Positions 3,746-63,506 of a stretch of 64,000 nucleotides of DNA are shown here, piece by piece (position 1 is the first letter of the stretch; every line of letters begins with the position of its first letter). The translations under genes were made by a program, and so were the position numbers. The DNA is from Escherichia phage JEP6. The notes under the pieces were generated by a model. That model saw nothing but the letters and a program-made list of their open reading frames with translations. It made no database searches and was not told the origin of the DNA. The stretch lies in the sequence record MT764206.1; one strand, written 5' to 3'.

Positions 3746-3775
3746 ATAGTACCACAGTATGCTTTGGTTGTAAAC
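3746..3775 (-). promoter_or_regulatory. early sigma70-type promoter (GTTTAC -35, TGG-TACTAT -10)
   Basis: minus strand GTTTAC, 18 nt, TGGTACTAT; about 40 nt upstream of motA ATG; member of 13-copy family. Confidence 0.55.
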
Positions 3776-3804
3776 CGTTTTGTGAAAAAATTTTAAAATA
3801 AAAA

Positions 3805-3826
3805 GGGAGAGCCGAGGCTCTCCCTA
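3805..3826 (-). terminator. GC-rich hairpin with U-run (intrinsic terminator-like)
   Basis: GGGAGAGCC-loop-GGCUCUCCC followed by U-rich run on minus-strand RNA. Confidence 0.45.
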
Positions 3827-3829
3827 AAA

Positions 3830-3979
3830 TTACTGCATGACTGTGATAACTATCATGATAACACGTTGAATTCCGAACGCAAGAAGACCTCCTGCTACAG
3901 CTGGAACAACACCTAAACCCGCCAGTAAAATGCCACCGGATACTAATGCAGCGCTTGTAATACCTATAAATGGACTCAT
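3830..3979 (-). CDS. small hydrophobic protein (49 aa), ATGA-coupled to gene 52 stop
   Basis: MSPFIGITSAALVSGGILLAGLGVV...; start overlaps gene 52 stop; below ORF-track size cutoff. Confidence 0.35.
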   Translation of the reverse strand: MSPFIGITSAALVSGGILLAGLGVVPAVAGGLLAFGIQRVIMIVITVMQ

Positions 3980-5304
3980 TTGATTTCCTCTAAATCTTTG
4001 GTGTATTCTGTAACTACATCAGTAGTTTTCCAATATTCATTTTCTTCTTTCTTAGCTTTAGCTTCTTCAGCAAGTTTCTTTGCTTCATCAGAAGTCATAT
4101 GAAAAATATTCATTCCAACTAGTTTATCAACATAAGAAGAATACATATCAATTTTAGAAAGTTCTTCGGTCAGTTCTTTGCGAGTTTTACCCTGCACAAC
4201 AATTTCACCTGAAATTACTTTCTTAATGAAATGTGCCTTGGCAAAGGCTAAACGAAATGCTGATTCAGTTTCTTTGATTTTGTTATCAATTCGTTTTTGG
4301 ACATAAGTTTTACGAACTTCAACGAAGTCTTTGATTAAATCAACTACGTTATCGTAAACTTGCAGCTTTCCTTTCTCATTAATAACGGTAATATTTTGGG
4401 AACGACGCTCAATCAACCCAAAGTCTTTCATAATTTTTGCATGGCGTTCTTCTTCATTATCGCTCAAAGAGTATTCTTTTCGGAATTTAACTTTGAATCC
4501 AAAACCATGCTCACCACAAGCATCATCCCATGTAATGAAGCCTTTATCTTCAAGTGGGTCTAAGATTTTACTCACATAAGTTTCACGATCATACTTATAC
4601 GGAATCTCAGTGATATGCATTTGAGTTCGTGAAGTAAACTTATATGTTCCACGAATTTCATATTGCCCATCAATTTCAACGACTTCACCGCGAAATTCTG
4701 GGAATTCTACCTTCGGTTTAGTTACTTTCTTTCCTTGAAGAGCTTGCAGTACAGCTTTCTTGACAGAAGAAACACTATGAGGAAGAATGTAAGTTGCATA
4801 ACCAGTTGCAATACCGGAAACACCATTAAGAAGAACAGTAGGAATAATAGGCAAATAGAAAGCAGGAGGAATGTGTTCTTTATCTTGATGTACCGGAGCA
4901 TATTCAGTATCTTTATATACGTTATAGAAATTTTTACTTACACGAGCAAAAATATAACGACTTGCTGCTGCTTTTTGAACGGTACGAGAACCAAAGTTTC
5001 CTTGACCATCTAACAGAGGAAAGTTATTATTCCAAGTGTTAGCCATCAAAGCACCTGCATCTTGTGCAGAGTTTTCACCATGATGATATCCAAGGTCCGC
5101 TACACCACCTGCAATAGAAGCGAGTTTGTGAAACTTATCTTTATTTCCTCGTGCCAAATCAAGAGCTCGAGCAATAACAAATCGTTGAACTGGCTTAAAT
5201 CCATCAATCATATTTGGAATAGCACGATTTTCAACCGTGTACATAGCATAAGCCAATGCTTCATTATCAATGATACTTTTTAAATCGCGATTATTCAGTT
5301 GCAT
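3976..5304 (-). CDS. 52: DNA topoisomerase II medium subunit (GyrA-like)
   Basis: 442 aa, MQLNNRDLKSIIDNEALAYAMYTVENRAIP... matches T4 gp52. Confidence 0.9.
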   Translation of the reverse strand: MQLNNRDLKSIIDNEALAYAMYTVENRAIPNMIDGFKPVQRFVIARALDLARGNKDKFHKLASIAGGVADLGYHHGENSAQDAGALMANTWNNNFPLLDGQGNFGSRTVQKAAASRYIFARVSKNFYNVYKDTEYAPVHQDKEHIPPAFYLPIIPTVLLNGVSGIATGYATYILPHSVSSVKKAVLQALQGKKVTKPKVEFPEFRGEVVEIDGQYEIRGTYKFTSRTQMHITEIPYKYDRETYVSKILDPLEDKGFITWDDACGEHGFGFKVKFRKEYSLSDNEEERHAKIMKDFGLIERRSQNITVINEKGKLQVYDNVVDLIKDFVEVRKTYVQKRIDNKIKETESAFRLAFAKAHFIKKVISGEIVVQGKTRKELTEELSKIDMYSSYVDKLVGMNIFHMTSDEAKKLAEEAKAKKEENEYWKTTDVVTEYTKDLEEIK

Positions 5305-5441
5305 AAATTTACCATACTAGTGAATGTAGTGCCATAATAACATCAGAAATGAAAAGCACGACTTGAATTAATCCGAACATTACTCCATAATATAGTGCTA
5401 CCAATAAAGCAGCAAGGGCTACCGAGTAGCCCAAGATTTTC

Positions 5442-5597
5442 TTAATCATTAGATAACAACGCAAATGTTAAATATGCACACATACCCTGGGCTAAAGCTT
5501 GTGAAAACACACTGCTAGCATCGATACAGATAGTTAAAACACATGCTACTATCCAACAAATAAATGAAATAACTCCTAATAATTTTGCGATATTCAT
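5442..5597 (-). CDS. ac: small membrane protein at the ac position
   Basis: 51 aa hydrophobic ORF MNIAKLLGVISFICWIVACVL... between stp and 52, as T4 ac. Confidence 0.45.
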   Translation of the reverse strand: MNIAKLLGVISFICWIVACVLTICIDASSVFSQALAQGMCAYLTFALLSND

Positions 5598-5604
5598 ATT
5601 TTCC

Positions 5605-5685
5605 TCACTGGCGTCCGAAGACGCCTTTGGTTTTAAGATTGTTACGATAGAACTGCATCACGTGTTCGTTGTGGAAATTACTCAT
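5605..5685 (-). CDS. stp: Stp peptide (26 aa), activator of host PrrC anticodon nuclease
   Basis: Manual translation [26 protein letters not shown], identical to T4 Stp as I recall it; TAATG overlap with ndd stop. Confidence 0.85.
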
Positions 5686-6143: not shown

Positions 6144-6203
6144 ATTAATTTCCTCTAAATTATTTTCTACTCCAAGGCCGCATGAATACACACGGCCATT
6201 AAA

Positions 6204-6840: not shown

Positions 6841-6868
6841 TTTCTGTTCCTCCGTAGTTGATAGGATA

Positions 6869-6898
6869 ATAATACCACAGAGGAACAGTCTTGTAAAC
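6869..6898 (-). promoter_or_regulatory. early promoter (GTTTAC / TGGTATTAT)
   Basis: 18-nt spacing, family member. Confidence 0.5.
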
Positions 6899-7083: not shown

Positions 7084-7347
7084 TCATAGCTCAATCTCAA
7101 TGATTTCAAGATTATTTTCTTTAATAGCTTTCTTTAAATCATCGTAAATAAGAACTTCCCAAGAATTGTTTAAATCACCATTCAACAAACGCTCTTGTTG
7201 CAATTTATCAGTAAGATATGGTTGATCTGATTCATATTTAGACAATCCCAATGAAATAAATGATGTTGCATCATCAATTTCAGAATATTGTACATAAACA
7301 AATTCACCTGTGATTTTATGTTTAACATAAAAGAATTTAAATTTCAT
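7084..7347 (-). CDS. hypothetical early protein
   Basis: 87 aa, SD GGAGGAG then ATG. Confidence 0.5.
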   Translation of the reverse strand: MKFKFFYVKHKITGEFVYVQYSEIDDATSFISLGLSKYESDQPYLTDKLQQERLLNGDLNNSWEVLIYDDLKKAIKENNLEIIEIEL

Positions 7348-7374
7348 TTTTACTCCTCCGTAGCTGATAGTTGT

Positions 7375-7404
7375 ATAGTACCACAGTCCTTGTGGTATGT
7401 AAAC
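7375..7404 (-). promoter_or_regulatory. early promoter (GTTTAC / TGGTACTAT)
   Basis: Family member; leader carries SD of 7084-7347 gene. Confidence 0.55.
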
Positions 7405-9455: not shown

Positions 9456-11633
9456 TTAGGCCGCAAGGGCCTTCATAGTTTTAGCGATTTGGGAAACTTC
9501 ATCATCACTTAAAGAGTTGCGATAACCGATGAAGTCGGAAACAATACGGAATTTCTTGGTAAACTCAGCAACCATTTTATCACTGTTTTTTGAAGCATTA
9601 TTTGATAATACATCAAAAAGATTAGTTACTGTCCAGATGTCATGACCGATGGTATCTTTTCCACCGTTGAAATATACACCCTGTAATGAACTAACCATAT
9701 TAGCGAGTCGTGTATATTCTTCAGAAACTTCATCTACACTGAAGTACTTCATCATAAAATCTAGCTCAGGATACTTGATAATTTTATCAATATATCGTTT
9801 AGCTGAACTTGAATAACCTACATACTTATCATAATCTACATCATCAAAAGCATCTACATATAAATCACGCAGAGTTTCAAAAATACATTGGCACTGACCG
9901 AGTTCTTTTACCTTTTTCTGTAAAAGCGGACGAATAACATAAAATTCATTAATGCCAATAAGATTAGCCATACGAATCAAAATATTCATAGATGGATGAC
10001 AAAGCGATGTAGTACCATCCATAGAGAAAATATCAGAACGATGCATATACGCTACATAACCAGTAATTTCATCTGCTTCTGACGTAAGTGTAAACAGTTC
10101 CTCTTTTTCCCAGCGCCCATCTTTAATTTCAAACTTAAATGCTGTAGCAGCTTTAGGACGAGGAGCTTTACTTTTTACTGCCTTTGGAATATAACTTTTA
10201 ACTAAAGCTTCAATTTCTGACAAATAATGAATGTTAACTTCATCATTTTCAAACATTGCCATAATATCAGGGAGTAAATCAATCTGTGATTCTACTTCCG
10301 GATTAATAAACAGAAGACGTTCGTTATGATGAATATTCAGAGTGTTATTAAATTCACTATCATCTAATGCACGTGCTAATCCACGAACAATATTAACACG
10401 ATTTTTAATATTATCAATAACGACATTAATTTTTGTTGTATTAATACCAAACAGACGATAACTTGATGCGACGGCTGAAGTTTCATGACTTTGCTTAATG
10501 CGTTTCAGTCGAGGGTCAAGATTTACTTCATACACAACCCCTGCATTGCATAACTTACTGTCAGGTTCAAACATGCTCTGCATCTTTTTATATGACAGAT
10601 TTTTAGTCGTGAATTTGACTGAATTACTAATCATATAATCTCGAGCAGAATACCCCATCTTCATCAATTCACGGTATGTGTGACGAGGAGATGTAGATTC
10701 TTTAAATCGTTTTACATCTTCATTAAATGCTTTCTCACTAAGCTCTTTAACACGCTCAATAATATTTTTACGGGTACGATCATCTAGTGAAAGAGCTTCA
10801 CGTGATGGAGCAATATCAAGTGAACCCATTGGAAACTTAATGTAATTCACTTCATTGCGAATGCTTAACCAGTTACGGTCTCTAATAACACCATCGATAG
10901 GATAAACGATACCGCCGTAGATAGCATACAATCCACCACGATCTGGCCAGTATCTTTCTGGATTTACGCCGTAATAATCATCAAAATCCGGAAAATAATC
11001 AATTTCGCGGTCAAGACCATTAATGATAGCCAAATCTTTGAATGGTCGCATGATATAAGAAACTTCATAAGCAAAGTTTCTAAAGTCTTTTTCTTCAACT
11101 GGAACTACGATTTCAATACCAGTTTTATCGTCTGGACCCATTTCTTTCACGAATGTAGGTTTAATTTGTGGACCATCGCCATCCATGTAAGCTACATAAC
11201 CACGAATTTCACCTTTATGATACGAAGTAATACTAAATGTATCAGTATAACTAAACGGAGATTTAGAACCTAAACCAAATCCGCCAATGAAATCGTTAGA
11301 TTCAGCTTTAGATGAACTGAAGTATGAATTATACAACCCAGGAGAATTATCATCACCCTGAATATCAAAATCACTCATACCCGGACCAAAATCTCGACAA
11401 ACAAATCGTGGGTCTAAACGTCCTGGAACTTGTATGATAAATTTTTCAGGATTTCCATTGAGAGCATGGGCATCAATCATGTTAGTAATCAATTCACGGA
11501 CTACTGCGCGAATCTTGTTTGTATACAAATCAGATGATAGAATTTTAAATACTTTAGGAGATGCTGTGATGCTAAATGCTTTTGATTTAGAACCATTACC
11601 AAGAATTGTTTCTTTTTCAGTGGTGATAATCAT
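9456..11633 (-). CDS. rIIA: rIIA protein
   Basis: 725 aa, same length as T4 rIIA. Confidence 0.85.
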
Positions 11634-11872: not shown

Positions 11873-11902
11873 ATTATACCACATCCTTGTGGTAAAGTAA
11901 AC
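11873..11902 (-). promoter_or_regulatory. early promoter (GTTTAC / TGGTATAAT)
   Basis: -35 hexamer overlaps gene 60 stop codon; 18-nt spacing. Confidence 0.55.
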
Positions 11903-13233: not shown

Positions 13234-14761
13234 CTACTGTTATCCATTTACCATTAATCTGTACTTCATCATTTTCATTTACAATAATTGTATCACCATT
13301 TAGTTCGAGAGTAAACCACTCACCGTCTTCTTTTTCTTCAAACGCCTTTTCACCAAGAACTAATCCAGTGATTGCGCAAATATCAAACAGTTCTTTGTTT
13401 TTAAGCATGTCAGCATATGACATACCCCAGCTATTAAGAACTTTACCGCGCAATGGATAACCACCATGAAGTTCTTTATCGCGAACATCAATAAGATATC
13501 CGATAGCAGAATCACCCTCAGTCAAGAAAAGAGTAGTGTCAGCATCTTTACCGCAAAGATTCGCTTTAATATGTTTATGAACCTTAGCTTTAGAAGCCTT
13601 TTTAGCTGCTTTAGTTTCTGCTGCTTTTTCTGCCGCCAATTTACGAGCCAAAGCAGCTTCAATAATTGGCATTAAAATTGCTTCATTATTTAAAATAGCA
13701 CGTGAAATCTTTTTAGCATCAAGCTGAATATGACTACGGATTTCACCAAATGGAGAAGTCAAACGCTCTTTAGTTTGAGAATCAAATCGCATGTTTTTCA
13801 TATCACGAACAAACATAACGATAGTCAAACATTCTTTGACACGTGCTTTAGTTACATCAATTTTGAACTTACGTTTGATTTGTGGAATAAGGTCTTCACA
13901 AATATCATCCATAACACAGTCAATGTGATGACCACCATTCTTAGTATGAATGTTATTGACGTACGTTAATTGACGAAAACCATCCGGTGAACGACCAACC
14001 GCAATAGAACAGTTTTCTTGTTCTTGAACGATGGCGTGTTCATCATATTGGCGTGCATATTTCTTAAAATTACCCTGAACCTTTTTACCATTAAAGGTAA
14101 ATTGAATATCAGGATAAACTACTGCAAGTGTCTGGAGACGATCTAGTGTAATGTCAAGATAAACTTGGGACAGCTCATTAGTTTCAAATGACATAAAATC
14201 AGGAATGAAAGTAACACGAGTTCCTTTCCATTTTCCAGGAATAGTTTCCCATGATTTATTTTCCATGCCATTTGAACAACGAACTACAATATTATTTTGA
14301 CCATCACCAGTTTCACCGACAAACATCACAGAAAAAATGTTTGTCAAACTAGAACCAACACCATTCATACCGCCGGTGACGCGTTCTTTATCATCACCGA
14401 AGTTACCACCTGCTTTTGGAATAGTCCACGCAGCAACAGGACCAGGAATTTCTTCACCGGTAGGTGTTTTAACCATCGCTTGTGGAATACCACGACCGTT
14501 ATCTTCAACTGTTACCTGATTATTTTTAATGGTAACATTAATTTTATTTGCGAATTTAAACTTAGTACGAATACCTTCATCTACTGAGTTATCGATAATT
14601 TCATCAATAAGCTTAACAAGACCAGGTACATACTGAACACTTTCCCATTTACCAAACAGAAAGCGCTCATGCATTTCATTAGCAGAAGAGCCAATGTACA
14701 TGCCGCTACGCTTTTTGATATGTTCAATATCGCTCAGAATTTTAATTTCATTCTTAATCAT
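13211..14761 (-). CDS. 39: DNA topoisomerase II large subunit, ATPase part (GyrB-like)
   Basis: Start taken at second Met (MIKNEIKILSD), about 516 aa; GHKL ATPase motifs VEDNGRGIP and GMNGVGSS. Confidence 0.9.
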   Translation of the reverse strand: MIKNEIKILSDIEHIKKRSGMYIGSSANEMHERFLFGKWESVQYVPGLVKLIDEIIDNSVDEGIRTKFKFANKINVTIKNNQVTVEDNGRGIPQAMVKTPTGEEIPGPVAAWTIPKAGGNFGDDKERVTGGMNGVGSSLTNIFSVMFVGETGDGQNNIVVRCSNGMENKSWETIPGKWKGTRVTFIPDFMSFETNELSQVYLDITLDRLQTLAVVYPDIQFTFNGKKVQGNFKKYARQYDEHAIVQEQENCSIAVGRSPDGFRQLTYVNNIHTKNGGHHIDCVMDDICEDLIPQIKRKFKIDVTKARVKECLTIVMFVRDMKNMRFDSQTKERLTSPFGEIRSHIQLDAKKISRAILNNEAILMPIIEAALARKLAAEKAAETKAAKKASKAKVHKHIKANLCGKDADTTLFLTEGDSAIGYLIDVRDKELHGGYPLRGKVLNSWGMSYADMLKNKELFDICAITGLVLGEKAFEEKEDGEWFTLELNGDTIIVNENDEVQINGKWITVGELRKNL

Positions 14762-15272: not shown

Positions 15273-15686
15273 TTATTCCTTAAAGTGAGCTTTCAACATC
15301 TGATACAAGGACCATGCTTGTTCATTATTTTCAATAGTAACTTTCATTACCGGGAATTCAGATGGTTCAGTTACTGGTGCAGGGTCTTCCTGCTCTTCAG
15401 CAGCCTGATATGGATTTTCCACTTCATTAAAGAACTCGGCTTCGTTGCTAGAAAGCCAGATAAAGTTTTCGTCAATGACTGTACCTCGTGATGAATATCC
15501 AACTATGCCAGTAGATGTCACAATTTTAGTAGGACGCCCGTAATAGTCAACATCTAAAATTTTAAAAGGTTCCATACCTAAACGCCGCGCATAGATTCCG
15601 TTATCAGTATGGTCTTTAATAAAATTTTCTTGAGCTTGTTTATTTTTGAATTGATACCATTTATTAACTTCAAATTTAATAGCCAT
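15273..15686 (-). CDS. hypothetical early protein (goF/comC-alpha position)
   Basis: 137 aa acidic protein. Confidence 0.45.
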
Positions 15687-15901
15687 TAATAAATTTCCTT
15701 CCAGTAAGTTGTGCCGTCTTCAGTAATTTCACGAAATACACCGTAAATTGGCTGTTTATCACCGACTTTCTCATACACATAAACAGAAGTCAAGTGAGTA
15801 AACTTGCTAGTATGTTCCTTTTGAACTACTACCAAATTTGGATCAAATAATACATCTTCAAATTCATCATTAGTGCAATTCTGAACAATTTTACGTTTCA
15901 T
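15686..15901 (-). CDS. hypothetical early protein (cef position)
   Basis: 71 aa, size matches T4 cef. Confidence 0.4.
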
Positions 15902-16072
15902 TACAATTTCCTCATTAATTAAACATTGGAGCGATGCGTTTCAGAAGAGTATCAGCACCTTTGGCGAATTTCCATTTTATTCTTCAAGTTGTTTTCTGTA
16001 TCAGTAGTTGATATTGATATAGTACCATAATCAACTACTGATGTATATAGTTTTATGAAAAAATTTTAAACT

Positions 16073-16570: not shown

Positions 16571-16614
16571 AGTTATCTCTCACTTGTTAAAAAGATTTTA
16601 TACTCCACAGGACC

Positions 16615-16644
16615 ATTATACTCTGGTCCCAAGAGTTTGTAAAC
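16615..16644 (-). promoter_or_regulatory. early promoter (GTTTAC / TATAAT)
   Basis: 18-nt spacing; palindromic spacer CTCTTGGGACCAGAG. Confidence 0.5.
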
Positions 16645-17194: not shown

Positions 17195-17695
17195 TTATCT
17201 CATTTCAATAAAATCTACGAGTTCAACATGCGATTTGCGGAACATTACTTGGTGCCCACCAATGATAACTTCATCTTCAGGAACTTCGTATACAGCGAGA
17301 TAAAATCCTTTAGAAGATAATTCTTCCCGCTCTTCTCGTGTGAACCATCTCATCATATCATATTCACTAGCGAAAGCAAAATGATAAAGACCTATAAACC
17401 ACCCTGGAATATGATATTCTACTCCAACATAATCTTTCTTGAACTTAGTATTAATTACTATATTAGCGTTTTTAACTAATAGTTTATCTTCGTGTGGTAA
17501 AGGAATTCTTTTATTATTATCGCTATGATGCATAAAATTAGGTCTGTCATAACCTACGTGTAATAGCCACTCTTCGCTCCATGAATCTATTATACTCCTG
17601 TATGGCGTTATTTGAACACAAAGATTTCGACGTATTGTTATAGCATCTTCACAATTAAGAATACTAAAAGATGATTCAACACGATAAATTTTCAT
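17195..17695 (-). CDS. hypothetical early protein
   Basis: Start at MKIYRVESS with SD GAGGA (track start over-extended into promoter). Confidence 0.5.
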   Translation of the reverse strand: MKIYRVESSFSILNCEDAITIRRNLCVQITPYRSIIDSWSEEWLLHVGYDRPNFMHHSDNNKRIPLPHEDKLLVKNANIVINTKFKKDYVGVEYHIPGWFIGLYHFAFASEYDMMRWFTREEREELSSKGFYLAVYEVPEDEVIIGGHQVMFRKSHVELVDFIEMR

Positions 17696-17722
17696 TTTAT
17701 TATCCTCAGTAGCTATGATGTT

Positions 17723-17752
17723 ATAATACCACAACTAACCGAGGAAGTAAAC
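17723..17752 (-). promoter_or_regulatory. early promoter (GTTTAC / TGGTATTAT)
   Basis: Family member. Confidence 0.5.
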
Positions 17753-17758
17753 AATTTT

Positions 17759-18442
17759 TTATCGTTTTGTTGGAAGAGACAGAGGATCGCACTCTTCCTC
17801 TGATGGAGCATCTTCAAGACCCATAGCGTATCGCAAAGCATACTTCATCATCAGGATGTCTTTCGCACAGTCATGAATAGAATTATGCGCAACGAATCCA
17901 TCTAAAGTTCCCTTTGGAAGAGGACATGTGGTCATATCACGAACAAGCAGAAGTGCTTCAATTCTGGTACGAATATCACGCTGATTCCAAAATTTACACG
18001 GTTCTAACTTAAATGTATCAAGCTCATTCTCGGAAACGCCGTTAAGACGTTGAATATCACGAATGAGATCGACTAAAATTGGAAAATCAAACGACATTCC
18101 ACGGCACCAGCCTTGAGATTTCCAAGGATCGATATTATGTGCATTGATGTAATCATTAAATTTTGCAATACCATCGATAGTGCTTACATCTTCATCTGAT
18201 GGTGCAATATTTTTTCTAGCTTCAGGTGATTGATTTTTCCACCATTCGATAGTACTTTTAGTAAAAAGACGATGTCCTTTTTGGCTTTTTAAATCGAACT
18301 TGATTTTAATGCCGCGCGAAACTAATTCATCAAATGTTTCAACTACTTCTGGATTAGGGTCAAAGGCAATAACAGCCAAATCAATAACAGCTGCCTTTTC
18401 ACCGCTTCCCATTGTTTCAAAATCTATAATAAAATCAAACAT
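17759..18442 (-). CDS. dexA: exonuclease A
   Basis: 227 aa, MFDFIIDFETMGSGEKAAVIDLAVIAF..., DEDDh-type 3'-5' exonuclease N-terminus; T4 DexA size. Confidence 0.85.
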   Translation of the reverse strand: MFDFIIDFETMGSGEKAAVIDLAVIAFDPNPEVVETFDELVSRGIKIKFDLKSQKGHRLFTKSTIEWWKNQSPEARKNIAPSDEDVSTIDGIAKFNDYINAHNIDPWKSQGWCRGMSFDFPILVDLIRDIQRLNGVSENELDTFKLEPCKFWNQRDIRTRIEALLLVRDMTTCPLPKGTLDGFVAHNSIHDCAKDILMMKYALRYAMGLEDAPSEEECDPLSLPTKR

Positions 18443-21349: not shown

Positions 21350-21379
21350 ACTATAACATTTTTACTTCAGTTTGTAAAC
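21350..21379 (-). promoter_or_regulatory. early promoter (GTTTAC / TATAGT)
   Basis: 18-nt spacing, 30 nt upstream of ATG 21319. Confidence 0.45.
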
Positions 21380-22039: not shown

Positions 22040-22659
22040 TCAACTACCTCAATATCATAAACTTTAAATGTTCCAAATGAATCGTGTAATTTTTCTTTTG
22101 AAATAGAAGTTATTCTATACTTTCCAATTGGAATCATCCATTCTTGTTCACGCACAATCATCATTAAGTTATCAGTACGCTCTGAATCTAGCCCATCAGT
22201 ATCTTCATACGTGTACTTGAACTCAGTATTAGGAGAAGAAAGTATAATATCGCTGATATGGTCAGAATAATTAAAAGCTTTATCAGTTTTTAAGCGAAGT
22301 ATTATTTTAGTAAAATATTCAGCGTAAGAAAAAGAACATGCTGTGAGCAAACTAGTAGTAAATGAATCTACTCTATTCGTTGAAAACACTTCTCCAACTT
22401 GTAAATCTTTAATGAGTTCTTTTGTCGATTTTGATATACCACGATATAACTGATAAGGTGATTCAGTTAAATGCTTTTTAATGATTTTATTCAACTGTTG
22501 ATGAAGAGCTTCATTCTTTTTGGCTTCCATACATTGCCAAAGAACTGACTGTTCAAAGTCAGTAAATTTTTCACAGACCTTTTTATACATATCATATTGA
22601 AAATCAACGCTTTCAGCTTTTATAGATAACTGTTCAACATCTGCAAGATTAATAATCAT
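22036..22659 (-). CDS. modB: ADP-ribosyltransferase ModB
   Basis: Start at M5 (SD GGAGG), 207 aa; LYRGIS, STN, REQEWMIP; paralog of modA. Confidence 0.7.
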   Translation of the reverse strand: MIINLADVEQLSIKAESVDFQYDMYKKVCEKFTDFEQSVLWQCMEAKKNEALHQQLNKIIKKHLTESPYQLYRGISKSTKELIKDLQVGEVFSTNRVDSFTTSLLTACSFSYAEYFTKIILRLKTDKAFNYSDHISDIILSSPNTEFKYTYEDTDGLDSERTDNLMMIVREQEWMIPIGKYRITSISKEKLHDSFGTFKVYDIEVVE

Positions 22660-22726
22660 GATAGCCTCCATATACTTCAGAAGCTATCATATCATCGTTA
22701 GAAAGGAAAGTAAACAACTTTTTGAA

Positions 22727-24796: not shown

Positions 24797-24826
24797 ATTA
24801 TACCATACTCATTTTGATATGTAAAC
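24797..24826 (-). promoter_or_regulatory. early promoter (GTTTAC / TGGTATAAT)
   Basis: 18-nt spacing. Confidence 0.5.
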
Positions 24827-24840
24827 CATAAAATGAAAAA

Positions 24841-24860
24841 AGGACTCCCGAAGGAGTCCT
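24841..24860 (-). terminator. hairpin AGGACUCC-UUCG-GGAGUCCU with U-run
   Basis: Perfect 8-bp stem, UUCG loop, U-rich tail on minus RNA; downstream of soc. Confidence 0.5.
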
Positions 24861-24867
24861 TGAATTA

Positions 24868-25128: not shown

Positions 25129-25285
25129 ACAGGTGTATTTATAACTTACAATTTGGCGTCTTTCCAGAGTTGTTCAATAATCTCTTGGTCTATTTCTTTA
25201 GTTATTTCATTACGTAATAAGGCAGTAAGGGCTTTCGCCCTTTTCTTATTCAACTTTTTGAGTTGACGTTTATTTAATTTAGCCA

Positions 25286-29068: not shown

Positions 29069-29129
29069 GATTAATCTCCTCAGTAGTTTATGTTTATATA
29101 GTATCTCAATTTCCAATAAAAGTAAACAG

Positions 29130-29571: not shown

Positions 29572-29629
29572 AACAATCTCCCCATTTAACCAACAAGACT
29601 ACTATACCATAGTCTCGTCAGCTTGTAAA

Positions 29630-31057
29630 CTAAAATTTTAATTCATTTGCCAAAGCATCTAACTGAGCTCGAGTCGATTCGTTTCTTTGATAGCGATTCT
29701 GTTCAGCCTGAATCTGCTGTGAACCTGCTACCTCACTCACTCCAGTTGGAGTAGAATCTTGTTCAATTTCTACCCATTTCTGATTTCCTTTTTGAACACC
29801 CATCAAAAACTTATTCCATTTGTTTTTATCGCCATATCGTGATTTGATTTGCTTAATGAGTTGTTGTTCAGCAGCTGCTAGCTCCTCGGTTTCAATGACC
29901 GCAAGCATAAAATCAGCTGTTGCTGGAAGACCGGCAGATTCTGCAATATCGCTCATGTTAACATCAGAAGAATCCCAAGCTTGTTTACCAACCTGTGCTG
30001 CAGTCCAAAGAACAGTTTCGGTTTCAACAGCAAGAGCACGTAATTCCTCTGCAATGGCTTTAACAGTTGTGTAACTATTTTCTGAGTAAACTCTAATGCG
30101 GCAAGATTTACAAATACCCAGATAGTCGACAATAATGATTGTTGGAACAAAATTCTTCTTGAGCTTCAATTCGTTTAAAAGTGATCGAAATGTATTAGCG
30201 TCTGCTCCACCAGTAGGATACTGTTTAACGATTAAACGCCCAAGAGTAGATTTCTCACGCCATTTTTCCATTTTTCCTTTATATTCAGCGTAAGAAATAT
30301 GCCCATCATCAATGTCATCAAGAGAAACATCAAGCATATTAGCATCAATACGCTTAGCACAGACTTCTTCTGCCATTTCCATGGAAATGTAAAGAACATT
30401 ATGTCCGAGCTGCAAATAATCTGCTGCCAATGAACACAGACCTAATGACTTACCAACGTTAACGCCAGCCATTAAAACGTTCAGTGTTCCAGTCTCAGCT
30501 CCGCCTTTAGTAATTTTGTTTAGAATTCTGAGTTTAAATGGAACCTTACGAGCTTTATTCATATAAGATAGCCAACGTGCTTCGTAGTCATCCATCCAAT
30601 CATGACCAACGTAGCTATCAAATGAAATTGATAATGCTTGGCGCATGATGTCAGGAATAGCACCTACATCTGGCATTTTCTTATTGCGTTTTTCCGGAGG
30701 AAGCTCAGCATTAGTTTGAATTTCGATTATTTTAGACGTAGCATTAAACATCGCCCTTTGCTGAACATATTTTTCTGTTTCTTTTACTAACCAGCTGTGG
30801 TCTTCCGGAGAATCAGCCAGTTTTGAAATAAGTGTTTTTACACCAGAATATTCTGTTTCAGTAAATGAACTATTTTCTAATGCAACATTTAACGCATTAA
30901 TAGATGGAACACTATGATACTCATTGACATGAGATTTAATTAATTTGAATGTATTTTTAGCTGGACCACTTTCAAAATATTCTGAATCCATATATGGCCA
31001 AACTTTTGAAAAATAAGCTTGATCAAATATGAGATGGGAAAGAATAATTTCTACCAC
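29630..31057 (-). CDS. 41: replicative DNA helicase (DnaB-like)
   Basis: 475 aa; Walker A GVNVGKS; initiates at GTG with SD AAGGAG. Confidence 0.9.
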   Translation of the reverse strand: MVEIILSHLIFDQAYFSKVWPYMDSEYFESGPAKNTFKLIKSHVNEYHSVPSINALNVALENSSFTETEYSGVKTLISKLADSPEDHSWLVKETEKYVQQRAMFNATSKIIEIQTNAELPPEKRNKKMPDVGAIPDIMRQALSISFDSYVGHDWMDDYEARWLSYMNKARKVPFKLRILNKITKGGAETGTLNVLMAGVNVGKSLGLCSLAADYLQLGHNVLYISMEMAEEVCAKRIDANMLDVSLDDIDDGHISYAEYKGKMEKWREKSTLGRLIVKQYPTGGADANTFRSLLNELKLKKNFVPTIIIVDYLGICKSCRIRVYSENSYTTVKAIAEELRALAVETETVLWTAAQVGKQAWDSSDVNMSDIAESAGLPATADFMLAVIETEELAAAEQQLIKQIKSRYGDKNKWNKFLMGVQKGNQKWVEIEQDSTPTGVSEVAGSQQIQAEQNRYQRNESTRAQLDALANELKF

Positions 31058-32585: not shown

Positions 32586-32662
32586 TCATTTTTTCCATAG
32601 GCATCATTATATTTTCCTCACTGGTTAAAGATAGAGTAATTATAACACAATAAATTTAGGCA

Positions 32663-35337: not shown

Positions 35338-35367
35338 ATAGTACCATGGAAGAACAGGGATGTAAAC
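35338..35367 (-). promoter_or_regulatory. early promoter (GTTTAC / TGGTACTAT)
   Basis: Family member. Confidence 0.5.
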
Positions 35368-35457: not shown

Positions 35458-35473
35458 GGGACCCGGAGGTCCC
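35458..35473 (-). terminator. hairpin GGGACC-UCCG-GGUCCC at gene 43 3' end
   Basis: Perfect 6-bp stem, followed by U-rich stretch. Confidence 0.4.
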
Positions 35474-41535: not shown

Positions 41536-41590
41536 GTTTTTCCTCCATAGAGATTATACTCTAATAAATTAAAGCATAATCTCTTATAAA

Positions 41591-44912: not shown

Positions 44913-46115
44913 TTATTTTGTAATAATGTCAAACTGTTCTTTAAAGCAGAAGCTTGAATCTTGGTGCTGATACAAAAATTCATATGCTTTTTCTCGCTCA
45001 CGGTCATAAAGAGCTCGGTCAGATGACAGTTCTTTAATACGCTCGAATGTTGATTCCATGTCATTTTCATCAAACCAAATGATACCACTATCATGCGAGG
45101 TCAAAGGAGTATTATCAACACGGAATTTTAAATTATCACCCGTTGATTTCCAAAATACCGGAATTGTACCGCAAGCACCTAATTCAAGATGAGTATATTC
45201 GAGTGAGCGTTGTAAGTATTTCTGGTTAAGTTTACTCAACTGATATCCAAAGCCAGATTTACTCATTCGTTCAAGCATTTCACTATTAATATAACAATCT
45301 AGGATTTGTGCCGGTTGATTCGGCGTGAGATTCATTTTATCAATCTCACGATTACCATAATATTCATACGGAATACCTTTTTCCTTAATTGCAATAAAAG
45401 CAGGGGAACGTTCAAGACCTTCCATTACAGTGGATTTACCAGCAGGTTTTAAGAATTTTTCGTGAAAATCAAACATCTGATAAAAACCTTTCCATGTAGT
45501 CGTACGACCAATCCAACGGTTGATGTTCATGTTAATTTCAGAAACATCTTTCCAATAAGTTGACCGAACCTTCACAATATCCATAGGAGGCTGAAAATTA
45601 TATACTGTTGGTGCTTCTTCAATATCATCAAACAGAGAAACAGTTTCTGGATACCATTCTTTCATCAGAACTTTATTAAAATCGCCATTATCAGAATGAC
45701 TAAAAATAACATCAGCTCGACGAACAGTTTCTTCTAATCCCAAATTTCGACGCAAAGAAAGCACAGAATGATCATGCTGATAAACTACAACACGAATAGA
45801 AGGTTTAATATTATCTAAAAGTTTTTTATAGTTATTAATCGTAGCTTCTTGAACGGAAGTAGCAGGAACAGAATTAATAATTAGAATATCACAATCATTT
45901 ACCAGCTTAAGTGCTTTATCGTATTCTTTAGCTAAAATAACTGGAATTGAAAATGATTTGTGGTCATGAGAACTTGTACGAGTAAATGATTTATCTTTAG
46001 CATAAACCAAAGTTACTTCATGACCATTTTTAATAAACCAATCACGCTGCTCAAGAGAAAATTTAGTTACACCGCAACCTTCAAGACCCCGAGCCAGAAA
46101 AATGCATACTTTCAT
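44913..46115 (-). CDS. a-gt: alpha-glucosyltransferase (HMC-DNA)
   Basis: 400 aa, close match to T4 alpha-gt. Confidence 0.9.
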   Translation of the reverse strand: MKVCIFLARGLEGCGVTKFSLEQRDWFIKNGHEVTLVYAKDKSFTRTSSHDHKSFSIPVILAKEYDKALKLVNDCDILIINSVPATSVQEATINNYKKLLDNIKPSIRVVVYQHDHSVLSLRRNLGLEETVRRADVIFSHSDNGDFNKVLMKEWYPETVSLFDDIEEAPTVYNFQPPMDIVKVRSTYWKDVSEINMNINRWIGRTTTWKGFYQMFDFHEKFLKPAGKSTVMEGLERSPAFIAIKEKGIPYEYYGNREIDKMNLTPNQPAQILDCYINSEMLERMSKSGFGYQLSKLNQKYLQRSLEYTHLELGACGTIPVFWKSTGDNLKFRVDNTPLTSHDSGIIWFDENDMESTFERIKELSSDRALYDREREKAYEFLYQHQDSSFCFKEQFDIITK

Positions 46116-46166
46116 TTAATATCCTCTTTGTTTTGGTTTATTTTATCAAAAAATTTATAAAGCAAT

Positions 46167-49390: not shown

Positions 49391-49420
49391 ATAATACCAC
49401 GGTTTGAACTTGTTGTAAAC
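49391..49420 (-). promoter_or_regulatory. early promoter (GTTTAC / TGGTATTAT)
   Basis: Family member. Confidence 0.5.
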
Positions 49421-49499: not shown

Positions 49500-49514
49500 A
49501 GGCCCAGAAGGCCT
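49500..49514 (-). terminator. hairpin GGCCUUCUGGGCC with U-rich tail
   Basis: GC stem at nrdH 3' end. Confidence 0.4.
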
Positions 49515-50457: not shown

Positions 50458-50928
50458 TTAATCATGTTTCCACACCCCATCGGTATTTGACCAAAGTCGC
50501 TGATTATCTGATCCTCGCCACAACTTTTTAGTCGGAAGATTTTTCTCATACTTCCCATCAATAATAACATCAACATATTTAAGCATTTCTAGTTGTTTAA
50601 TATCTTCAAACTTATATCCTGTCCACAACCAAATGCTTTTATTGGGATAAAGATTTTTAATAGTTTGAACCACAGAGTGAATCACGTCTCTGTTATCAGG
50701 ATAAAGAGGGTCACCTCCAGTTATAGTCAATCCTTCTATATAATCATTATTCAAACATTCAATTAATTGCTCTAGTGTTTCACCAGTGAATGGAATACCA
50801 TTTCTAGCATTCCATGTTGATTTATTATAACACCCTTCGCATTTATGCAAACATCCAGTAACAAAAAGAACGGTCCTGCACCCAGGACCATTAACAAAAT
50901 CGCAAGGATAAAATCTATCATAATTCAT
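50458..50928 (-). CDS. nrdG: anaerobic RNR activase (radical SAM)
   Basis: 156 aa; CxxxCxxC-type cluster CLHKCEGCYN. Confidence 0.85.
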   Translation of the reverse strand: MNYDRFYPCDFVNGPGCRTVLFVTGCLHKCEGCYNKSTWNARNGIPFTGETLEQLIECLNNDYIEGLTITGGDPLYPDNRDVIHSVVQTIKNLYPNKSIWLWTGYKFEDIKQLEMLKYVDVIIDGKYEKNLPTKKLWRGSDNQRLWSNTDGVWKHD

Positions 50929-58580: not shown

Positions 58581-58610
58581 CATTATACCACATCCTTGTG
58601 GCAAAGTAAA
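58581..58610 (-). promoter_or_regulatory. early promoter (GTTTAC / TGGTATAAT)
   Basis: Palindromic spacer CCACAAGGATGTGG. Confidence 0.55.
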
Positions 58611-59633
58611 CTAGTTCAGTGCATTTAGTGCATTGTTCAGTTTAGAACGTTGCTTTGTCAGATTTTGAACCCTTGACTGAGCTTGTTTTAACACCTTTTC
58701 AGCTTCTAACACTTCATTGGTCGCTTTAACGAGTTCATCATCTACTGCCTTAAGAGACTTCTCAATCGCGTCAGCGTGCCATTTTTCTACAGGTTTAAAA
58801 TTTGAATTTTCAGTAGGAAGAAAACTCACTTTATTAAGTTTACATGCATCTATATTGCTTGAGCTATACATCCAAAATTTAGGATCGTTTGATGAGTAAT
58901 TAGATGAATTTAAGGTATTTTGCACTTCCTGCTTTTTCTCTTGAACAATTTCATCCTTTCTCAAAAATTCATATTTAAATGAAACGATCATATCAAGTTC
59001 ATATGTTGTTGTATGTTCCCAATTTCGCTCAAAATGAGGTAAAATCTTAGATTGAACAGCAGCAACAACATCCATATACTTAAATGCTTCTGTCAGCTGT
59101 GATTTAAGACATTCACAAATTGAAAGAGAATTTTTTGTATTAGGTTTAAAGCTAATTCGTGCAGTTCTATTATTTTCTTTTAATGGTCTTACTTCCATCT
59201 GAAGAGTATAACCATCAAATTTCAGGTTCTTTAAGTTAATGTCAGAACCTTTTAATCGACTCGCAATTGATAAAATTTGTTTTAATTGTTTACGGAATAG
59301 AGCAATAAATCTCCATTCAAGACGATAATGATTTGGATTAAAAAATCCAGTTGATAGATCAGTCTTACTTTGACCAACGCCTCGAACAAATAGAGGATTT
59401 TTATAATCAATAGTTTTACAGAAATCGGTGAGCTGCTCGCGAGCAGTCATTTGTGTAATATACCCTGCTTTACTAAAATTACGCACCCATTCACTGCTAT
59501 TCGTATACTTAAAGTGATGAATAACACGATTAACTTTATCAGGGTCTAAATTATTTTCACACAAAAATGTCATAACATCACGAGTATAACTGGCATTACG
59601 AACCATATCTTCAATTTGAGAACGAGTTTTCAT
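58611..59633 (-). CDS. paralog-array protein 3
   Basis: 340 aa; motif FRKQLKQILSIASRLKGSD. Confidence 0.6.
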   Translation of the reverse strand: MKTRSQIEDMVRNASYTRDVMTFLCENNLDPDKVNRVIHHFKYTNSSEWVRNFSKAGYITQMTAREQLTDFCKTIDYKNPLFVRGVGQSKTDLSTGFFNPNHYRLEWRFIALFRKQLKQILSIASRLKGSDINLKNLKFDGYTLQMEVRPLKENNRTARISFKPNTKNSLSICECLKSQLTEAFKYMDVVAAVQSKILPHFERNWEHTTTYELDMIVSFKYEFLRKDEIVQEKKQEVQNTLNSSNYSSNDPKFWMYSSSNIDACKLNKVSFLPTENSNFKPVEKWHADAIEKSLKAVDDELVKATNEVLEAEKVLKQAQSRVQNLTKQRSKLNNALNALN

Positions 59634-61527: not shown

Positions 61528-61555
61528 TTTGTGTTCCTCCGTAGTTGATAGTTGT

Positions 61556-61585
61556 ATAGTACCACAGAGGAACGGTCTTGTAAAC
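61556..61585 (-). promoter_or_regulatory. early promoter (GTTTAC / TGGTACTAT)
   Basis: Family member. Confidence 0.55.
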
Positions 61586-61587
61586 CA

Positions 61588-61902
61588 CTAAAAGAAACTT
61601 CTTTCACAATTTTTTCCACTGAACCATGCGCTCACTGCTTTCTTAGTCTCAGGAGCAGTGTTATCCATAAACCATTCAAAGGCAGCCTTTTTATGATTCT
61701 GGAGGGCTTCTCGGGCTTTAATCTGCTCACGGTCTATTAACACTAACATATGAGCCTTTCTTGTCACCATGGGCTTCTTATGATTTTTTGAATACTCCCA
61801 ATCATTTGTCCATCGCATCGTTGTTGCGAATTGAAGTACAGCTTCTTTAATCTTAGTTTCGTAAATTTCACGAGCCTTTGAGTATAACATCATTACCTCC
61901 AT
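61588..61902 (-). CDS. hypothetical protein
   Basis: 104 aa. Confidence 0.45.
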   Translation of the reverse strand: MEVMMLYSKAREIYETKIKEAVLQFATTMRWTNDWEYSKNHKKPMVTRKAHMLVLIDREQIKAREALQNHKKAAFEWFMDNTAPETKKAVSAWFSGKNCERSFF

Positions 61903-61992
61903 TTACCAGTTTAATTCTAGTCATCTTTTTAATGGCAGTCCATATAATCTATTTCTGAACTGCCTTTTTGTCTTAGAAGTCCTCTTATGAAT

Positions 61993-62979
61993 TTATTTCA
62001 GAAGAGTAACCTCAGCGATTTCTTCCCAACCGTTTTTGTCGGTCATAATGAAGTCAGCAAGATAAAGAGCAGTACGCAGTGAAACATTACGTAAACGGTT
62101 AACATTGACTTTCATCCATGATAATGCTTTATAAGTTTCTTCATCAGAAAGACCGCGCTTTTGCATCATGTCAGTTGAAAGAATAACATCTTCAACCCTG
62201 ACCATAATTTCTTCATTAGTGTGAACACCCAAATCCAAATAAACCGAGCGGGACACTAATGCTTGTAAATGTGGAGCAAGTTTAGTACCACGGTCTAATT
62301 CGCGGTCAATGTCAACGTTTGTGATAAAAACAATCGTTCCTTTAAATTCAAACTCACGCTCAATGCCTTTTTCTTCTAAGTAAGAAGACGCAGTGCTCCA
62401 GCAGACTTTACGGGTCTCTCCAGTGTCCAGAGCGGCTTTTAGAAGATTAAGAATGTCCATATCAGAGAAAACATCCACATCATCAATCAAAAGGACAGAA
62501 TTCTCTTCACGATTATTCCAAAGCTGCTCATAAAGACCAATACCAGAGATTTTACCATTAATGCTTTTATATTCAATGTATCCAATATCATTTGCTTTAT
62601 TTAAAGCTTTATCTAAAGAATACGTTTTACCAATACCTGCTGCGCCAGAGATAATTAATGAACGAATATTTCCGTTAATAATACCATTCGTCATCATTCC
62701 CATAACATTAAATCTTTTATTAATGCGGGTTTTCATATCTTCATATGATTCTTTAACTTCTTCAACTTTTACACCATCATATGAAATATCTGATTTGTAA
62801 ACCCAAACACCGCGACGTTTACCGTCAATTTCAACAAAAACTTTACCATCTCCTTGTGCATCTACCGGAGCATTATCTGGGAACCATTCTCCTAAGAGCT
62901 CAAAAGTTCCAGAGATTTCTTTACCGAAGTAGATACCCTTATTGATAGTTACAGTTTTCATTTTATTCTCCAATTTCAC
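61993..62979 (-). CDS. P-loop NTPase of unknown function
   Basis: 328 aa; Walker A GAAGIGKT, Walker B VLLIDDVD. Confidence 0.6.
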   Translation of the reverse strand: MKLENKMKTVTINKGIYFGKEISGTFELLGEWFPDNAPVDAQGDGKVFVEIDGKRRGVWVYKSDISYDGVKVEEVKESYEDMKTRINKRFNVMGMMTNGIINGNIRSLIISGAAGIGKTYSLDKALNKANDIGYIEYKSINGKISGIGLYEQLWNNREENSVLLIDDVDVFSDMDILNLLKAALDTGETRKVCWSTASSYLEEKGIEREFEFKGTIVFITNVDIDRELDRGTKLAPHLQALVSRSVYLDLGVHTNEEIMVRVEDVILSTDMMQKRGLSDEETYKALSWMKVNVNRLRNVSLRTALYLADFIMTDKNGWEEIAEVTLLK

Positions 62980-62997
62980 ATTTGTTTTGATAGGGTA

Positions 62998-63027
62998 ATA
63001 GTATCACACTACTACCCTACTGTAAAC
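62998..63027 (-). promoter_or_regulatory. early promoter (GTTTAC / TGATACTAT)
   Basis: 18-nt spacing. Confidence 0.45.
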
Positions 63028-63030
63028 AAT

Positions 63031-63294
63031 TTATTTTAATGTTTGCCAAATTTTTACTGCTTCGCGACGAGATACTTCTACAGCTCCAAGTTCTACGGCT
63101 TTTTGGCGTCGGCGAGCATGTAAGTCATAATGTTTAATGCGTTTATCTTGAAACCAAGAACGTTTCATTCCTATTGCTTCTGCCATTTTATGAAGCTCTT
63201 CAATATCTCCATCAGTGAACATATGACAATTTTTAGTTGGATGACCGCGAAGTTTCCATCCATGATTCATTAAAACATCTACGTAAACTGTCAT
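63031..63294 (-). CDS. small conserved protein of unknown function
   Basis: 87 aa; motifs GWKLRGHPTKNCHMFTD and KRSWFQ...HYDL. Confidence 0.5.
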   Translation of the reverse strand: MTVYVDVLMNHGWKLRGHPTKNCHMFTDGDIEELHKMAEAIGMKRSWFQDKRIKHYDLHARRRQKAVELGAVEVSRREAVKIWQTLK

Positions 63295-63440
63295 TGATTC
63301 TTCTCCAAATAAGTTTCGATAATTTTCTGAGCGAGATAAACTGCATTATCTTCAGTTGCATCTTCTAAGAAACTTTCAAAACACTCTGAAATTTCTTCTG
63401 TGTCAATCAACTTTTTTACTTCAATTGGTGTAATTTTCAT
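63291..63440 (-). CDS. small acidic protein (49 aa)
   Basis: MKITPIEVKKLIDTEEISE...; ATGA-coupled. Confidence 0.35.
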   Translation of the reverse strand: MKITPIEVKKLIDTEEISECFESFLEDATEDNAVYLAQKIIETYLEKNQ

Positions 63441-63476
63441 TTTGTTTTCCGTTTAAGTGTTTGTTTTGATAGTTGT

Positions 63477-63506
63477 ATAGTACCATAAAGCTTTATGCTT
63501 GTAAAC
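63477..63506 (-). promoter_or_regulatory. early promoter (GTTTAC / TGGTACTAT)
   Basis: Family member. Confidence 0.55.

Follow-up and report, generated by a model that had tools for sequence, protein, structure and literature searches.

The early promoters (Pe) of bacteriophage T4 were described by Nolan et al. as carrying GTTTAC at -36 to -31, an A-rich region between -40 and -44 that resembles an upstream (UP) element, and GT-rich sequence 5' of -12 (PMC1524935); Hinton characterizes them as 'UP/-35/TGn/-10' promoters which out-compete those of the host (PMC2988021), and for the T4/PST pair the early-promoter consensus has been given as TTTACW-N17-TAYWAT (PMC4122927). Early promoters also figure in a model of genome rearrangement, in which 'promoter-early stem-loop' (PeSL) cassettes bound insertions and deletions (indels) and form mini-circles in RB49/phi1 (PMC2839356). 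The model was later extended to T4/PST (PMC4122927), and both reports credit Repoila et al. (1994) with the same observation, made earlier around the T-even IP genes (PMC2839356, PMC4122927). A third relevant arrangement is found at T4 e, soc, 49 and I-TevI, where hairpins sequestering the Shine-Dalgarno sequence (SD) are combined with an internal promoter: the long transcripts fold, the internal transcripts are translatable (PMC3014915). Here we analyze a minus-strand element, GTTTAC-N18-TAYWAT, that recurs in a stretch of 64,000 nucleotides (nt) from Escherichia phage JEP6 (MT764206.1), which we refer to as the window. Its copies are very probably early promoters of the T4 type, and several of them are overlapped by predicted RNA hairpins for which we tentatively propose a role in translation.

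Results

A family of probable early promoters

The window is a segment of a Tequatrovirus (T4-like) genome, as judged by megablast and blastn. Its first 20 kb are 96-97% identical to Tequatrovirus coliphages such as HY03 and PEC04 (megablast), and a blastn chain against T4 spans nearly its whole length at 86-98% identity (94-98% over most of it), so that it corresponds to ~160.2-168.9 kb plus 1-55.9 kb of T4, where the classical early/middle genes are transcribed leftward. Exact copies of the pattern GTTTAC-N15-TGG-TAYWAT number 11 and lie without exception on the minus strand, with an expectation of 0.00 from 100 dinucleotide-preserving shuffles; when up to two mismatches are allowed the matches rise to 21, again on the minus strand only, against 0.75 expected, and we put the family at ~20 sites (Table 1). 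A position weight matrix derived from the 11 exact sites proved to be overfitted, one shuffle reaching a score of 27, and pattern scans took its place. The first-pass annotation of this DNA had announced 13 promoters and listed 14 coordinates. Eleven of these are exact copies, and three deviate by one or two bases, namely 16615 (two mismatches, AGAG in place of xTGG), 21350 (two mismatches, TGT and TATAGT) and 62998 (one mismatch, TGA), so that the spacer ending in TGG, given there as general, is a feature of 11 of the 14. One coordinate, 58581, was off by one and should read 58582, and six members had been missed (1281, 13287, 16019, 22686, 29098 and 29601).

The fixed distance of 18 nt between GTTTAC and the -10 element holds at all ~20 window sites. 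A generic sigma-70 scan parses them as TTTACA/T, 17 bp and TAxxAT, mostly with TG before the -10; as the -35 hexamer can thus be read as TTTACW, the 18-nt distance is the canonical 17-bp sigma-70 spacer. Many early promoters of JS98 and RB69 have 17 nt between GTTTAC and the -10, i.e. a 16-bp spacer, which makes the 'fixed' spacing a trait of the T4 genus. An SD and an ATG follow on the same strand at every one of the 20 sites, the start codon lying 25-44 nt from the end of the -10 at 18 of them; the exceptions are 13287 (53 nt) and 16019 (117 nt). The 117-nt leader after the latter site (window 15902-16018, minus strand) contains a mini-open reading frame (ORF) of seven codons, ATGGAAATTCGCCAAAGGTGCTGA, ahead of the next gene.

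The identity of these sites is supported by their position. When the T4 region was scanned with the same pattern, a syntenic site was found for 19 of the 20, mostly identical or with 1-3 bases different, and the lone site without a T4 counterpart, 62998, lies within an insertion missing from T4. GTTTAC, at -36 to -31, is exact at 19 of the 20 sites (16019 has ATATAC), TGn is present at 18 (missing at 16615 and 29098), and an A/T-rich UP block, often TTTTCACAAA or AAAATTTTTTCACAAAAC, lies upstream of most. With a T4-like window, synteny at 19 of 20 sites, a match to the published consensus and an SD and ATG downstream, the initial reading as early promoters is upheld, and the sequence comparison makes it very probable that the sites are sigma-70-dependent early promoters (Pe) of a T4-like phage. 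We consider it extremely improbable that they are instead middle promoters dependent on MotA/AsiA, or that AT-rich DNA has produced sigma-70-like matches by chance. Middle promoters likewise bear TGn and TAtaaT (PMC2988021), and -10-like hexamers are abundant in AT-rich phage DNA, with 81 generic sites in 20 kb; but the sites have GTTTAC at -35 and not the MotA box (a/t)(a/t)(a/t)TGCTTtA at -30, their 11 exact copies, against 0 expected, are confined to the early-gene strand, and they are syntenically conserved in T4, with similar sites in JS98 and RB69.

Some observations weigh against the assignment as early promoters. We infer promoter activity and the position of the transcription start from homology and consensus, and the T4 RefSeq and GenBank records carry no annotated promoter features. 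The generic sigma-70 scan, run over 20 kb, returned 81 sites against 81.8 expected, and without enrichment in this AT-rich DNA only the family-specific pattern is informative. Some members, moreover, are weak or oddly placed: gene 39 contains 13287, the -35 of 16019 is degenerate, and TGG is missing from 21350 and 16615. A literature search found no genome-wide study of T4 transcription start sites.

The unit we propose consists of an A/T-rich UP block (at -40 to -60 in promoters of the T4 type), a -35 element (G)TTTAC(A/T), a 17-bp spacer ending in the extended -10 motif TGn (tGTGG) and a -10 element TAYWAT with T at -12, A at -11 and T at -7, with transcription expected to start ~7 nt downstream of the -10 and leaders supplying a GGAG-type SD at all sites. 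Unmodified host RNA polymerase would fire these promoters immediately after infection, leftward into early genes comprising asiA, motA, rIIA.1, motB, motB.2, srd, modB, mrh.2, sp, dmd, nrdC.x and small ORFs. SDs of the GGAG type are the kind cut by the T4 endoribonuclease RegB in early mRNAs, as is established for motA (PMC2988021, PMC3014915).

The units are less alike than the '~45-bp identical blocks' and 'near-identical' promoters of the first description would have it. No two cassettes have an exact run of more than 27 nt in common, blocks at >=90% identity extend to at most 40 nt, and over ~105 nt compared in register the median identity is 42%. The shared leader ACAACTATCAACTACGGAGGA is exact at one place (61535-61555) and, with one mismatch, at a second (7354-7374), while only its first part, (TAT)ACAACTATCAA, is common to five sites; the palindromic spacer CCACAAGGATGTGG is exact at two places, 11879 and 58588, with a variant, CCACAAGGACTGTGG, at site 7375. 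Altogether, spacer-internal palindromes are present at four sites.

Predicted hairpins overlapping the promoters

We folded each promoter as sense RNA from the -35 to the ATG and expressed its stability as a z-score against dinucleotide shuffles. Seven of the 18 folded window promoters reach z <= -3.2, with predicted free energies of -15 to -23 kcal/mol, and the structures fall into three geometries. Small palindromes within the spacer form class I (CCACA-N4/5-TGTGG at 7375, 11873 and 58582; ATAAAGCTTTAT at 63477). In class II the spacer pairs with the leader across a loop that holds the -10 and the start site, the 3' arm either including the SD (class IIa: 6869, 61556 and 17723) or stopping before it (class IIb: 16615, 29601 and 62998). 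In class III, represented by 22686, the -10 and the next ~7 nt pair with SD and AUG. We rejected these hairpins as candidate intrinsic terminators, as no U-tract follows them.

Such stable structures are associated with early promoters: among T4 gene starts, z <= -3 is reached by 5 of 16 with a proximal early promoter versus 3 of 103 without (Fisher p = 0.001). In the group without an early promoter, the outliers of this screen (z <= -2.5) include soc and 49, whose SD-sequestering hairpins are well known (PMC3014915).

The strand on which the helices are most stable points to RNA. For the 20 strong hairpins among 65 promoter-gene pairs from the window, T4, JS98 and RB69, the mean free energy is -20.1 kcal/mol as sense RNA versus -14.6 kcal/mol as antisense RNA, a mean difference of 5.5 kcal/mol (p = 4e-4) that is due to G.U pairs and argues for a structure of the sense-strand RNA, not a DNA palindrome. 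This bears on an alternative in which the palindromes and hairpins act as DNA, either as operators for dimeric proteins or as cruciform or hairpin targets for recombination or structure-specific nucleases. Such a role could account for perfect palindromes whose loop is short or lacking, such as ATAAAGCTTTAT at 63477 and its counterpart ATGCTATAGCAT at the orthologous Karamvirus promoter, which would make feeble RNA hairpins, and for CCACA-N4-TGTGG, which is entirely Watson-Crick; the PeSL authors speculated on a recombination protein that binds the stem-loops (PMC2839356), and the shut-off of early promoters is unexplained by ModA or AsiA (PMC2988021). We nevertheless regard action as DNA as unlikely, given that the long helices contain 2-5 G.U pairs each, with the strand bias just described (~5.5 kcal/mol), that their loops of 15-24 nt disfavour cruciform extrusion, and that the palindrome sequences vary between promoters, so that there is no single operator.

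Structure in the RNA is also what appears to have been maintained in evolution. At the motB.2 promoter the spacer-SD helix is kept with different sequences in each lineage (arms in Table 1), and within the T4 group single changes convert G.U into G-C or A-U. Over six lineages, 94% of the cells are paired and 8 of 9 pairs have changed on both sides, against 46-58% in slid controls, when counted on hand-anchored arms, i.e. in an alignment biased towards the structure. The modB and nrdC.8 promoters likewise keep their pairing geometry despite sequence divergence; the helix at promoter 62998 is TAGGGTA/TACCCTA in the window and GGTATGAG/CTCATACC in Karamvirus, and the spacer palindrome of promoter 63477 reads ATGCTATAGCAT at the Karamvirus orthologue. 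By these comparisons, compensatory changes seem to have preserved the helix in Tequatrovirus, Dhakavirus, Mosigvirus and Karamvirus.

Two side observations concern the same kind of pairing. The consensus leader segment ACTACGG can pair, G.U pairs included, with CTGTGGT, the consensus segment at the extended -10, for instance at 6844-6888 and 61533-61573, and part of the conservation of the shared leader may be due to this pairing with the promoter segment in read-through RNA. At the start of T4 gene 45.2 (T4 33246-33306; window ~41536-41600, minus strand), a hairpin of -20.5 kcal/mol (z -7.1) has arms that enclose an apparent MotA-box middle promoter (ATGCTTTAAT...TATAAT), and may thus place a promoter of the middle class inside a hairpin in a similar way. 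When the entire window was scanned against Rfam, no matches were obtained at the gathering threshold.

A possible gate on read-through translation

What could such hairpins do? Their 5' arm would be formed by untranscribed spacer or -10 region and their 3' arm by the leader, which at 6869, 17723, 22686 and 61556 includes the SD. As this 5' arm precedes the presumed start site, the helix would form only in transcripts arriving from upstream. At these four promoters, the energy for opening the SD is 7.5-13.6 kcal/mol in read-through RNA versus 0.1-0.6 kcal/mol in the promoter's own transcript, a comparison that uses the assumed start site, and the read-through values exceed those of all 40 upstream-shuffled controls. 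From these modelled energies we infer that the hairpin between spacer or -10 and SD blocks translation of read-through RNA: the gene would be translated from the transcript of its own promoter and blocked on RNA reading through from upstream. Accordingly placed genes, i.e. motB.2, modB, nrdC.8 and the ndd.4-like ORF, would be silent on delayed-early and middle read-through RNA, perhaps subject to Rho polarity.

The distribution of terminators fits such a function. None of the five window promoters with an intrinsic terminator <=120 nt upstream (3746, 24797, 35338, 49391 and 63477) has a bridging hairpin, and over the four genomes a bridging hairpin occurs at 1 of 15 promoters with an upstream terminator versus 19 of 50 without (one-sided p = 0.018), counts in which T4 and window orthologues are non-independent and the effect is weaker without T4. 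This pattern is consistent with terminator and hairpin being alternative means of shielding an early cassette from transcripts that arrive from upstream.

Several results weigh against the hairpin layer as a general device. Over the whole family, native and upstream-shuffled sequences do not differ in the probability of an unpaired SD (0.40 vs 0.36, p = 0.18) or in the SD opening energy (4.0 vs 2.7 kcal/mol, p = 0.46), and SD sequestration is therefore the property of a subset. The strong hairpins at 16615, 29601 and 62998 exclude the SD, and the loop-less perfect palindromes of class I, being poor RNA hairpins, may act on DNA. RNAalifold, applied to an unsupervised MAFFT alignment of the motB.2 promoters, predicts no structure, since the helices of the different clades do not align in register; this was the reason for counting pairs on hand-anchored arms, with the bias that this entails. 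All told, we think it possible, if somewhat doubtful, that hairpin gating of about a fifth to a third of the early promoters is both real and new.

If gating is true, it would explain the strong conservation of an otherwise 'free' spacer and leader, and how immediate-early-only expression of some genes persists after early-promoter shut-off. It would further mean that newly acquired promoter-plus-ORF cassettes come insulated from upstream transcription without the need for a terminator.

Promoter cassettes as probable sites of gene gain and loss

The suggestion, made at the outset, that the repeats act as recombination substrates for early-gene modules corresponds to the published PeSL model and finds support in the junctions of three indels. 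Our full census covers one genome pair, the window against T4, and lists 13 indels or replacements along the blastn chain, three of them with junctions in promoter/leader repeats and ten elsewhere. In the first of the three, the insertion 63031-63440 lies between promoters 63477 and 62998, whose leaders both contain the 13-nt direct repeat CTATCAAAACAAA, and T4 has a single promoter at this locus, directly joined to nrdC.10. In the second, the shared leader of the imm.1 promoter (35338), with ATGAAAAT, is immediately followed by the insertion, an ORF of 85 amino acids (aa) at 35046-35303. In the third, at 7084-7347, T4 carries, in place of the window's 87-aa ORF, an imm.1-type leader and ATGAAAATCGCT joined to the final 15 nt of that ORF, a structure that bears the marks of ectopic exchange between two promoter cassettes. 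The T4 segment 166997-167056, upstream of ndd.6, when compared with window 7084-7374, contains a remnant ORF of eight codons, ATGAAAATCGCTGAGATTGAACTATGA, whose first 12 nt are the imm.1 start and whose last 15 nt match the end of the 87-aa ORF with one mismatch; by its make-up, this remnant appears to be a fossil of recombination between two promoter cassettes.

At the other ten indels versus T4, which are tight gene-to-gene junctions or homing-endonuclease genes, we saw no promoter remnants. Four of them are homing-endonuclease genes present in T4: segF, mobB and mobC are absent from the JEP6 window in the blastn chain, and in place of the T4 segA/beta-gt segment the window has a shorter, unrelated segment of ~950 nt. 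The count as such speaks against a large role for the promoters, as ~1 of the 13 would be expected at cassettes by area and whole-gene indels must fall between genes anyway, making the enrichment modest. The statistical support is thus modest, but we take the junction sequences at the three indels to be telling.

Comparison with further genomes adds to this picture. The 87-aa ORF 63031-63294 (minus strand) encodes a DUF4031 protein (Pfam E = 1.6e-21), and the cassette 63031-63440 to which it belongs is polymorphic, being found in only 154 phage records. Enterobacter phages of the genus Karamvirus carry the DUF4031 cassette at ~90% identity, promoter-flanked there too, and this degree of identity suggests a recent exchange between genera. 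In JS98, a promoter of the T4/window motB type, with its -10-enclosing hairpin (AAACTCTTGGGACCAGAGTATAATGGTCC), lies at 39437-39466 5' of 55.2, not of motB. Compared with window 17195-17895, the motB.2 locus of the Tequatrovirus phages BECP11 and NR1 is 95-97% identical over the end of dexA, the promoter and the leader, whereas identity in the motB.2 coding region falls to 40-55% from ~+40, a sharp mosaic boundary just inside the gene. Sharing patches of 20-40 nt, the promoters have probably also served on occasion as patches of homology for the gain, loss and exchange of small early-gene cassettes, in a shuffling of the PeSL type.

Could the repeats then be primarily mobile or recombinogenic PeSL-like linkers for small early ORFs, with promoter activity being secondary? 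Besides the three indels with promoter/leader junctions, one with its 13-nt direct repeat, the displaced motB-type promoter of JS98, the conserved promoter and leader in front of divergent motB.2 genes, the restricted occurrence of the promoter-flanked DUF4031 cassette and the demonstrated mini-circles of RB49/phi1 (PMC2839356), this would be in keeping with the existence of same-spacer sub-families at non-orthologous sites (6869, 61556 and T4 27051; 11873 and 58582). We hold it to be quite unlikely, however, since 19 of the 20 sites stably keep their syntenic position in T4, 10 of the 13 indels lie away from promoters, four of them homing-endonuclease genes, and exact shared runs of <=27 nt are short for efficient homologous exchange; the conserved positions, moreover, are exactly the elements contacted by RNA polymerase. 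Early promoters that have on occasion lent themselves to recombination remain our preferred reading.

The individual sites, with their hairpins, terminators and T4 counterparts, are given in Table 1. Going by name and position, promoter 17723 is probably the P8.1 of the literature.

Table 1. Putative early promoters of the JEP6 window, overlapping hairpins and palindromes, upstream terminators and other features
Feature	Window position	Strand	T4 counterpart	Details
Early promoter 5' of asiA	1281..1310	-	161182	TGA for TGG; within asiA.1 coding region
Early promoter 5' of motA	3746..3775	-	163644	Leader starts ACAACTATCAACTAC
Intrinsic terminator	3804-3825			29 nt upstream of promoter 3746
Early promoter 5' of small ndd.4-like ORF	6869..6898	-	166778	
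Hairpin at promoter 6869	~6844-6888			Spacer CTGTTCCTCTGTGGT x leader ACTACGGAGGAACAG; dG -23.2, z ~-5.6
Early promoter 5' of 87-aa ORF 7084-7347	7375..7404	-	167057 (promoter)	T4 without the ORF
Spacer-internal palindrome at promoter 7375				TACCACA-N5-TGTGGTA
rIIA	9456-11633	-		From blastn chain vs T4
Early promoter 5' of rIIA.1	11873..11902	-	2429	Spacer palindrome CCACAAGGATGTGG
Early-promoter-like site in 3' end of gene 39	13287..13316	-	3854	TGA; next start 53 nt downstream
71-aa ORF (position of T4 cef)	15686-15901			Start 117 nt downstream of site 16019
Early-promoter-like site	16019..16048	-	6601	Degenerate -35 ATATAC; full UP element, TGG-TACTAT, family leader
Early promoter 5' of motB	16615..16644	-	7186	No TGn
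Hairpin enclosing -10 of promoter 16615	~16602-16636			GGGACC/GGTCC; z ~-3.2
Early promoter 5' of motB.2	17723..17752	-	8189	
17-bp hairpin at promoter 17723	~17703-17745			Spacer x leader and SD; dG -21.1, z ~-5
motB.2 helix arms, T4 group				TCCTCGGT / ACTGAGGA
motB.2 helix arms, JS98				TTCTCCTCATG / CATGAGGAGAA
motB.2 helix arms, RB69				TTCTCCTCTGGTT / AACCAGAGGAGAA
motB.2 helix arms, Mosigvirus ESCO47				TTCTCCTCTAG / CTAGAGGAGAA
motB.2 helix arms, Karamvirus CkP1				ATCTCCGTTTGG / CCAAACGGAGAT
Early promoter 5' of srd	21350..21379	-	11822	Weaker match (TGT, TATAGT)
Early promoter 5' of modB	22686..22715	-	13157	
Hairpin at promoter 22686	~22657-22691			-10 and next 7 nt x SD and AUG; z -3.3
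Early promoter 5' of mrh.2	24797..24826	-	15259	
Intrinsic terminator	24840-24861			14 nt upstream of promoter 24797
Early promoter 5' of sp	29098..29127	-	20080	Without TGn, without hairpin
Early promoter 5' of dmd	29601..29630	-	20583	
15-bp hairpin enclosing -10 of promoter 29601	~29588-29623			z ~-3.7; 3' arm upstream of SD
Early promoter	35338..35367	-	27051, 5' of imm.1	Terminator 35458-35473
Early promoter 5' of 55.6	49391..49420	-	41677	Terminator 49500-49514
Early promoter 5' of nrdC.4	58582..58611	-	50944	Spacer palindrome CCACAAGGATGTGG
Early promoter 5' of nrdC.8	61556..61585	-	53914	Sole exact copy of 21-nt leader
Spacer-SD hairpin at promoter 61556	~61533-61573			dG -19.4, z ~-4.6
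Early promoter 5' of nrdC.10	62998..63027	-	None	Distal end of inserted cassette
Hairpin enclosing -10 of promoter 62998	~62975-63026			TAGGGTA.../TACCCTA; z ~-4.2
Two-ORF cassette (49-aa ORF and 87-aa DUF4031 protein)	63031..63440	-	None	T4 without cassette
Early promoter, here 5' of inserted cassette	63477..63506	-	55355, driving nrdC.10 there	
Palindrome and terminator at promoter 63477	63538-63557 (terminator)			Spacer holds 12-nt perfect palindrome ATAAAGCTTTAT
Homing-endonuclease-related differences vs T4	25143-25323, 32573-33520, 46106-46131, 50908-50928			

Discussion

What does the window add to the systems described before? The promoter family and its role as a recombination linker are already known, in the form of the T4 early-promoter consensus and of PeSL, and the practical value of our analysis lies in annotation: it provides ~20 early transcription units for JEP6 and flags three indels of the cassette type. 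The hairpin layer, which resembles both the PeSL stem-loops and the gates with a late promoter in a hairpin and is identical to neither, is a modest lead. In the searchable literature, which did not extend to the older work on T4, we found no description of SD-sequestering hairpins at early promoters.

With the early promoters of T4, the window sites share consensus, strand and downstream genes, and 19 of the 20 are syntenic. There is no difference of substance, the one extra promoter, 62998, coming with a cassette that T4 lacks.

The likeness to PeSL begins with the consensus, as the TTTACW-N17-TAYWAT of T4/PST is the window motif, and extends to composite terminator-promoter units at 5 of the 20 window sites, to stem-loops within or overlapping the promoter and to indels of small ORFs bounded by the elements. 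The defining combination of promoter and stem-loop is found in a subset, with terminators <=120 nt upstream at five sites and promoter-overlapping hairpins at seven. In PeSL as described for T4/PST, however, the stem-loop lies just upstream of the promoter and all are read as terminators or attenuators (Arbiol et al., 2010; Comeau et al., 2014), whereas many helices of the window are long-range, reaching from the spacer to the leader or SD, hold the -10 and the start site in their loop and lack a U-tract.

Closest to the proposed gate are e, soc, 49 and I-TevI, where the 5' arm likewise lies upstream of the start of an internal promoter and the long RNA hides SD or AUG. There, the internal promoter is a gp55-dependent late promoter (TATAAATA), and translation is 'late only'; in the window it is of the early type, GTTTAC-N18-TAYWAT, and would give translation from the 'own early promoter only'. 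Having an early-type and not a late internal promoter, the arrangement would therefore be a variant of the gating at e, soc, 49 and I-TevI rather than a member of that group, and, if it is true, the 'early-only' mirror image of their 'late-only' gate.

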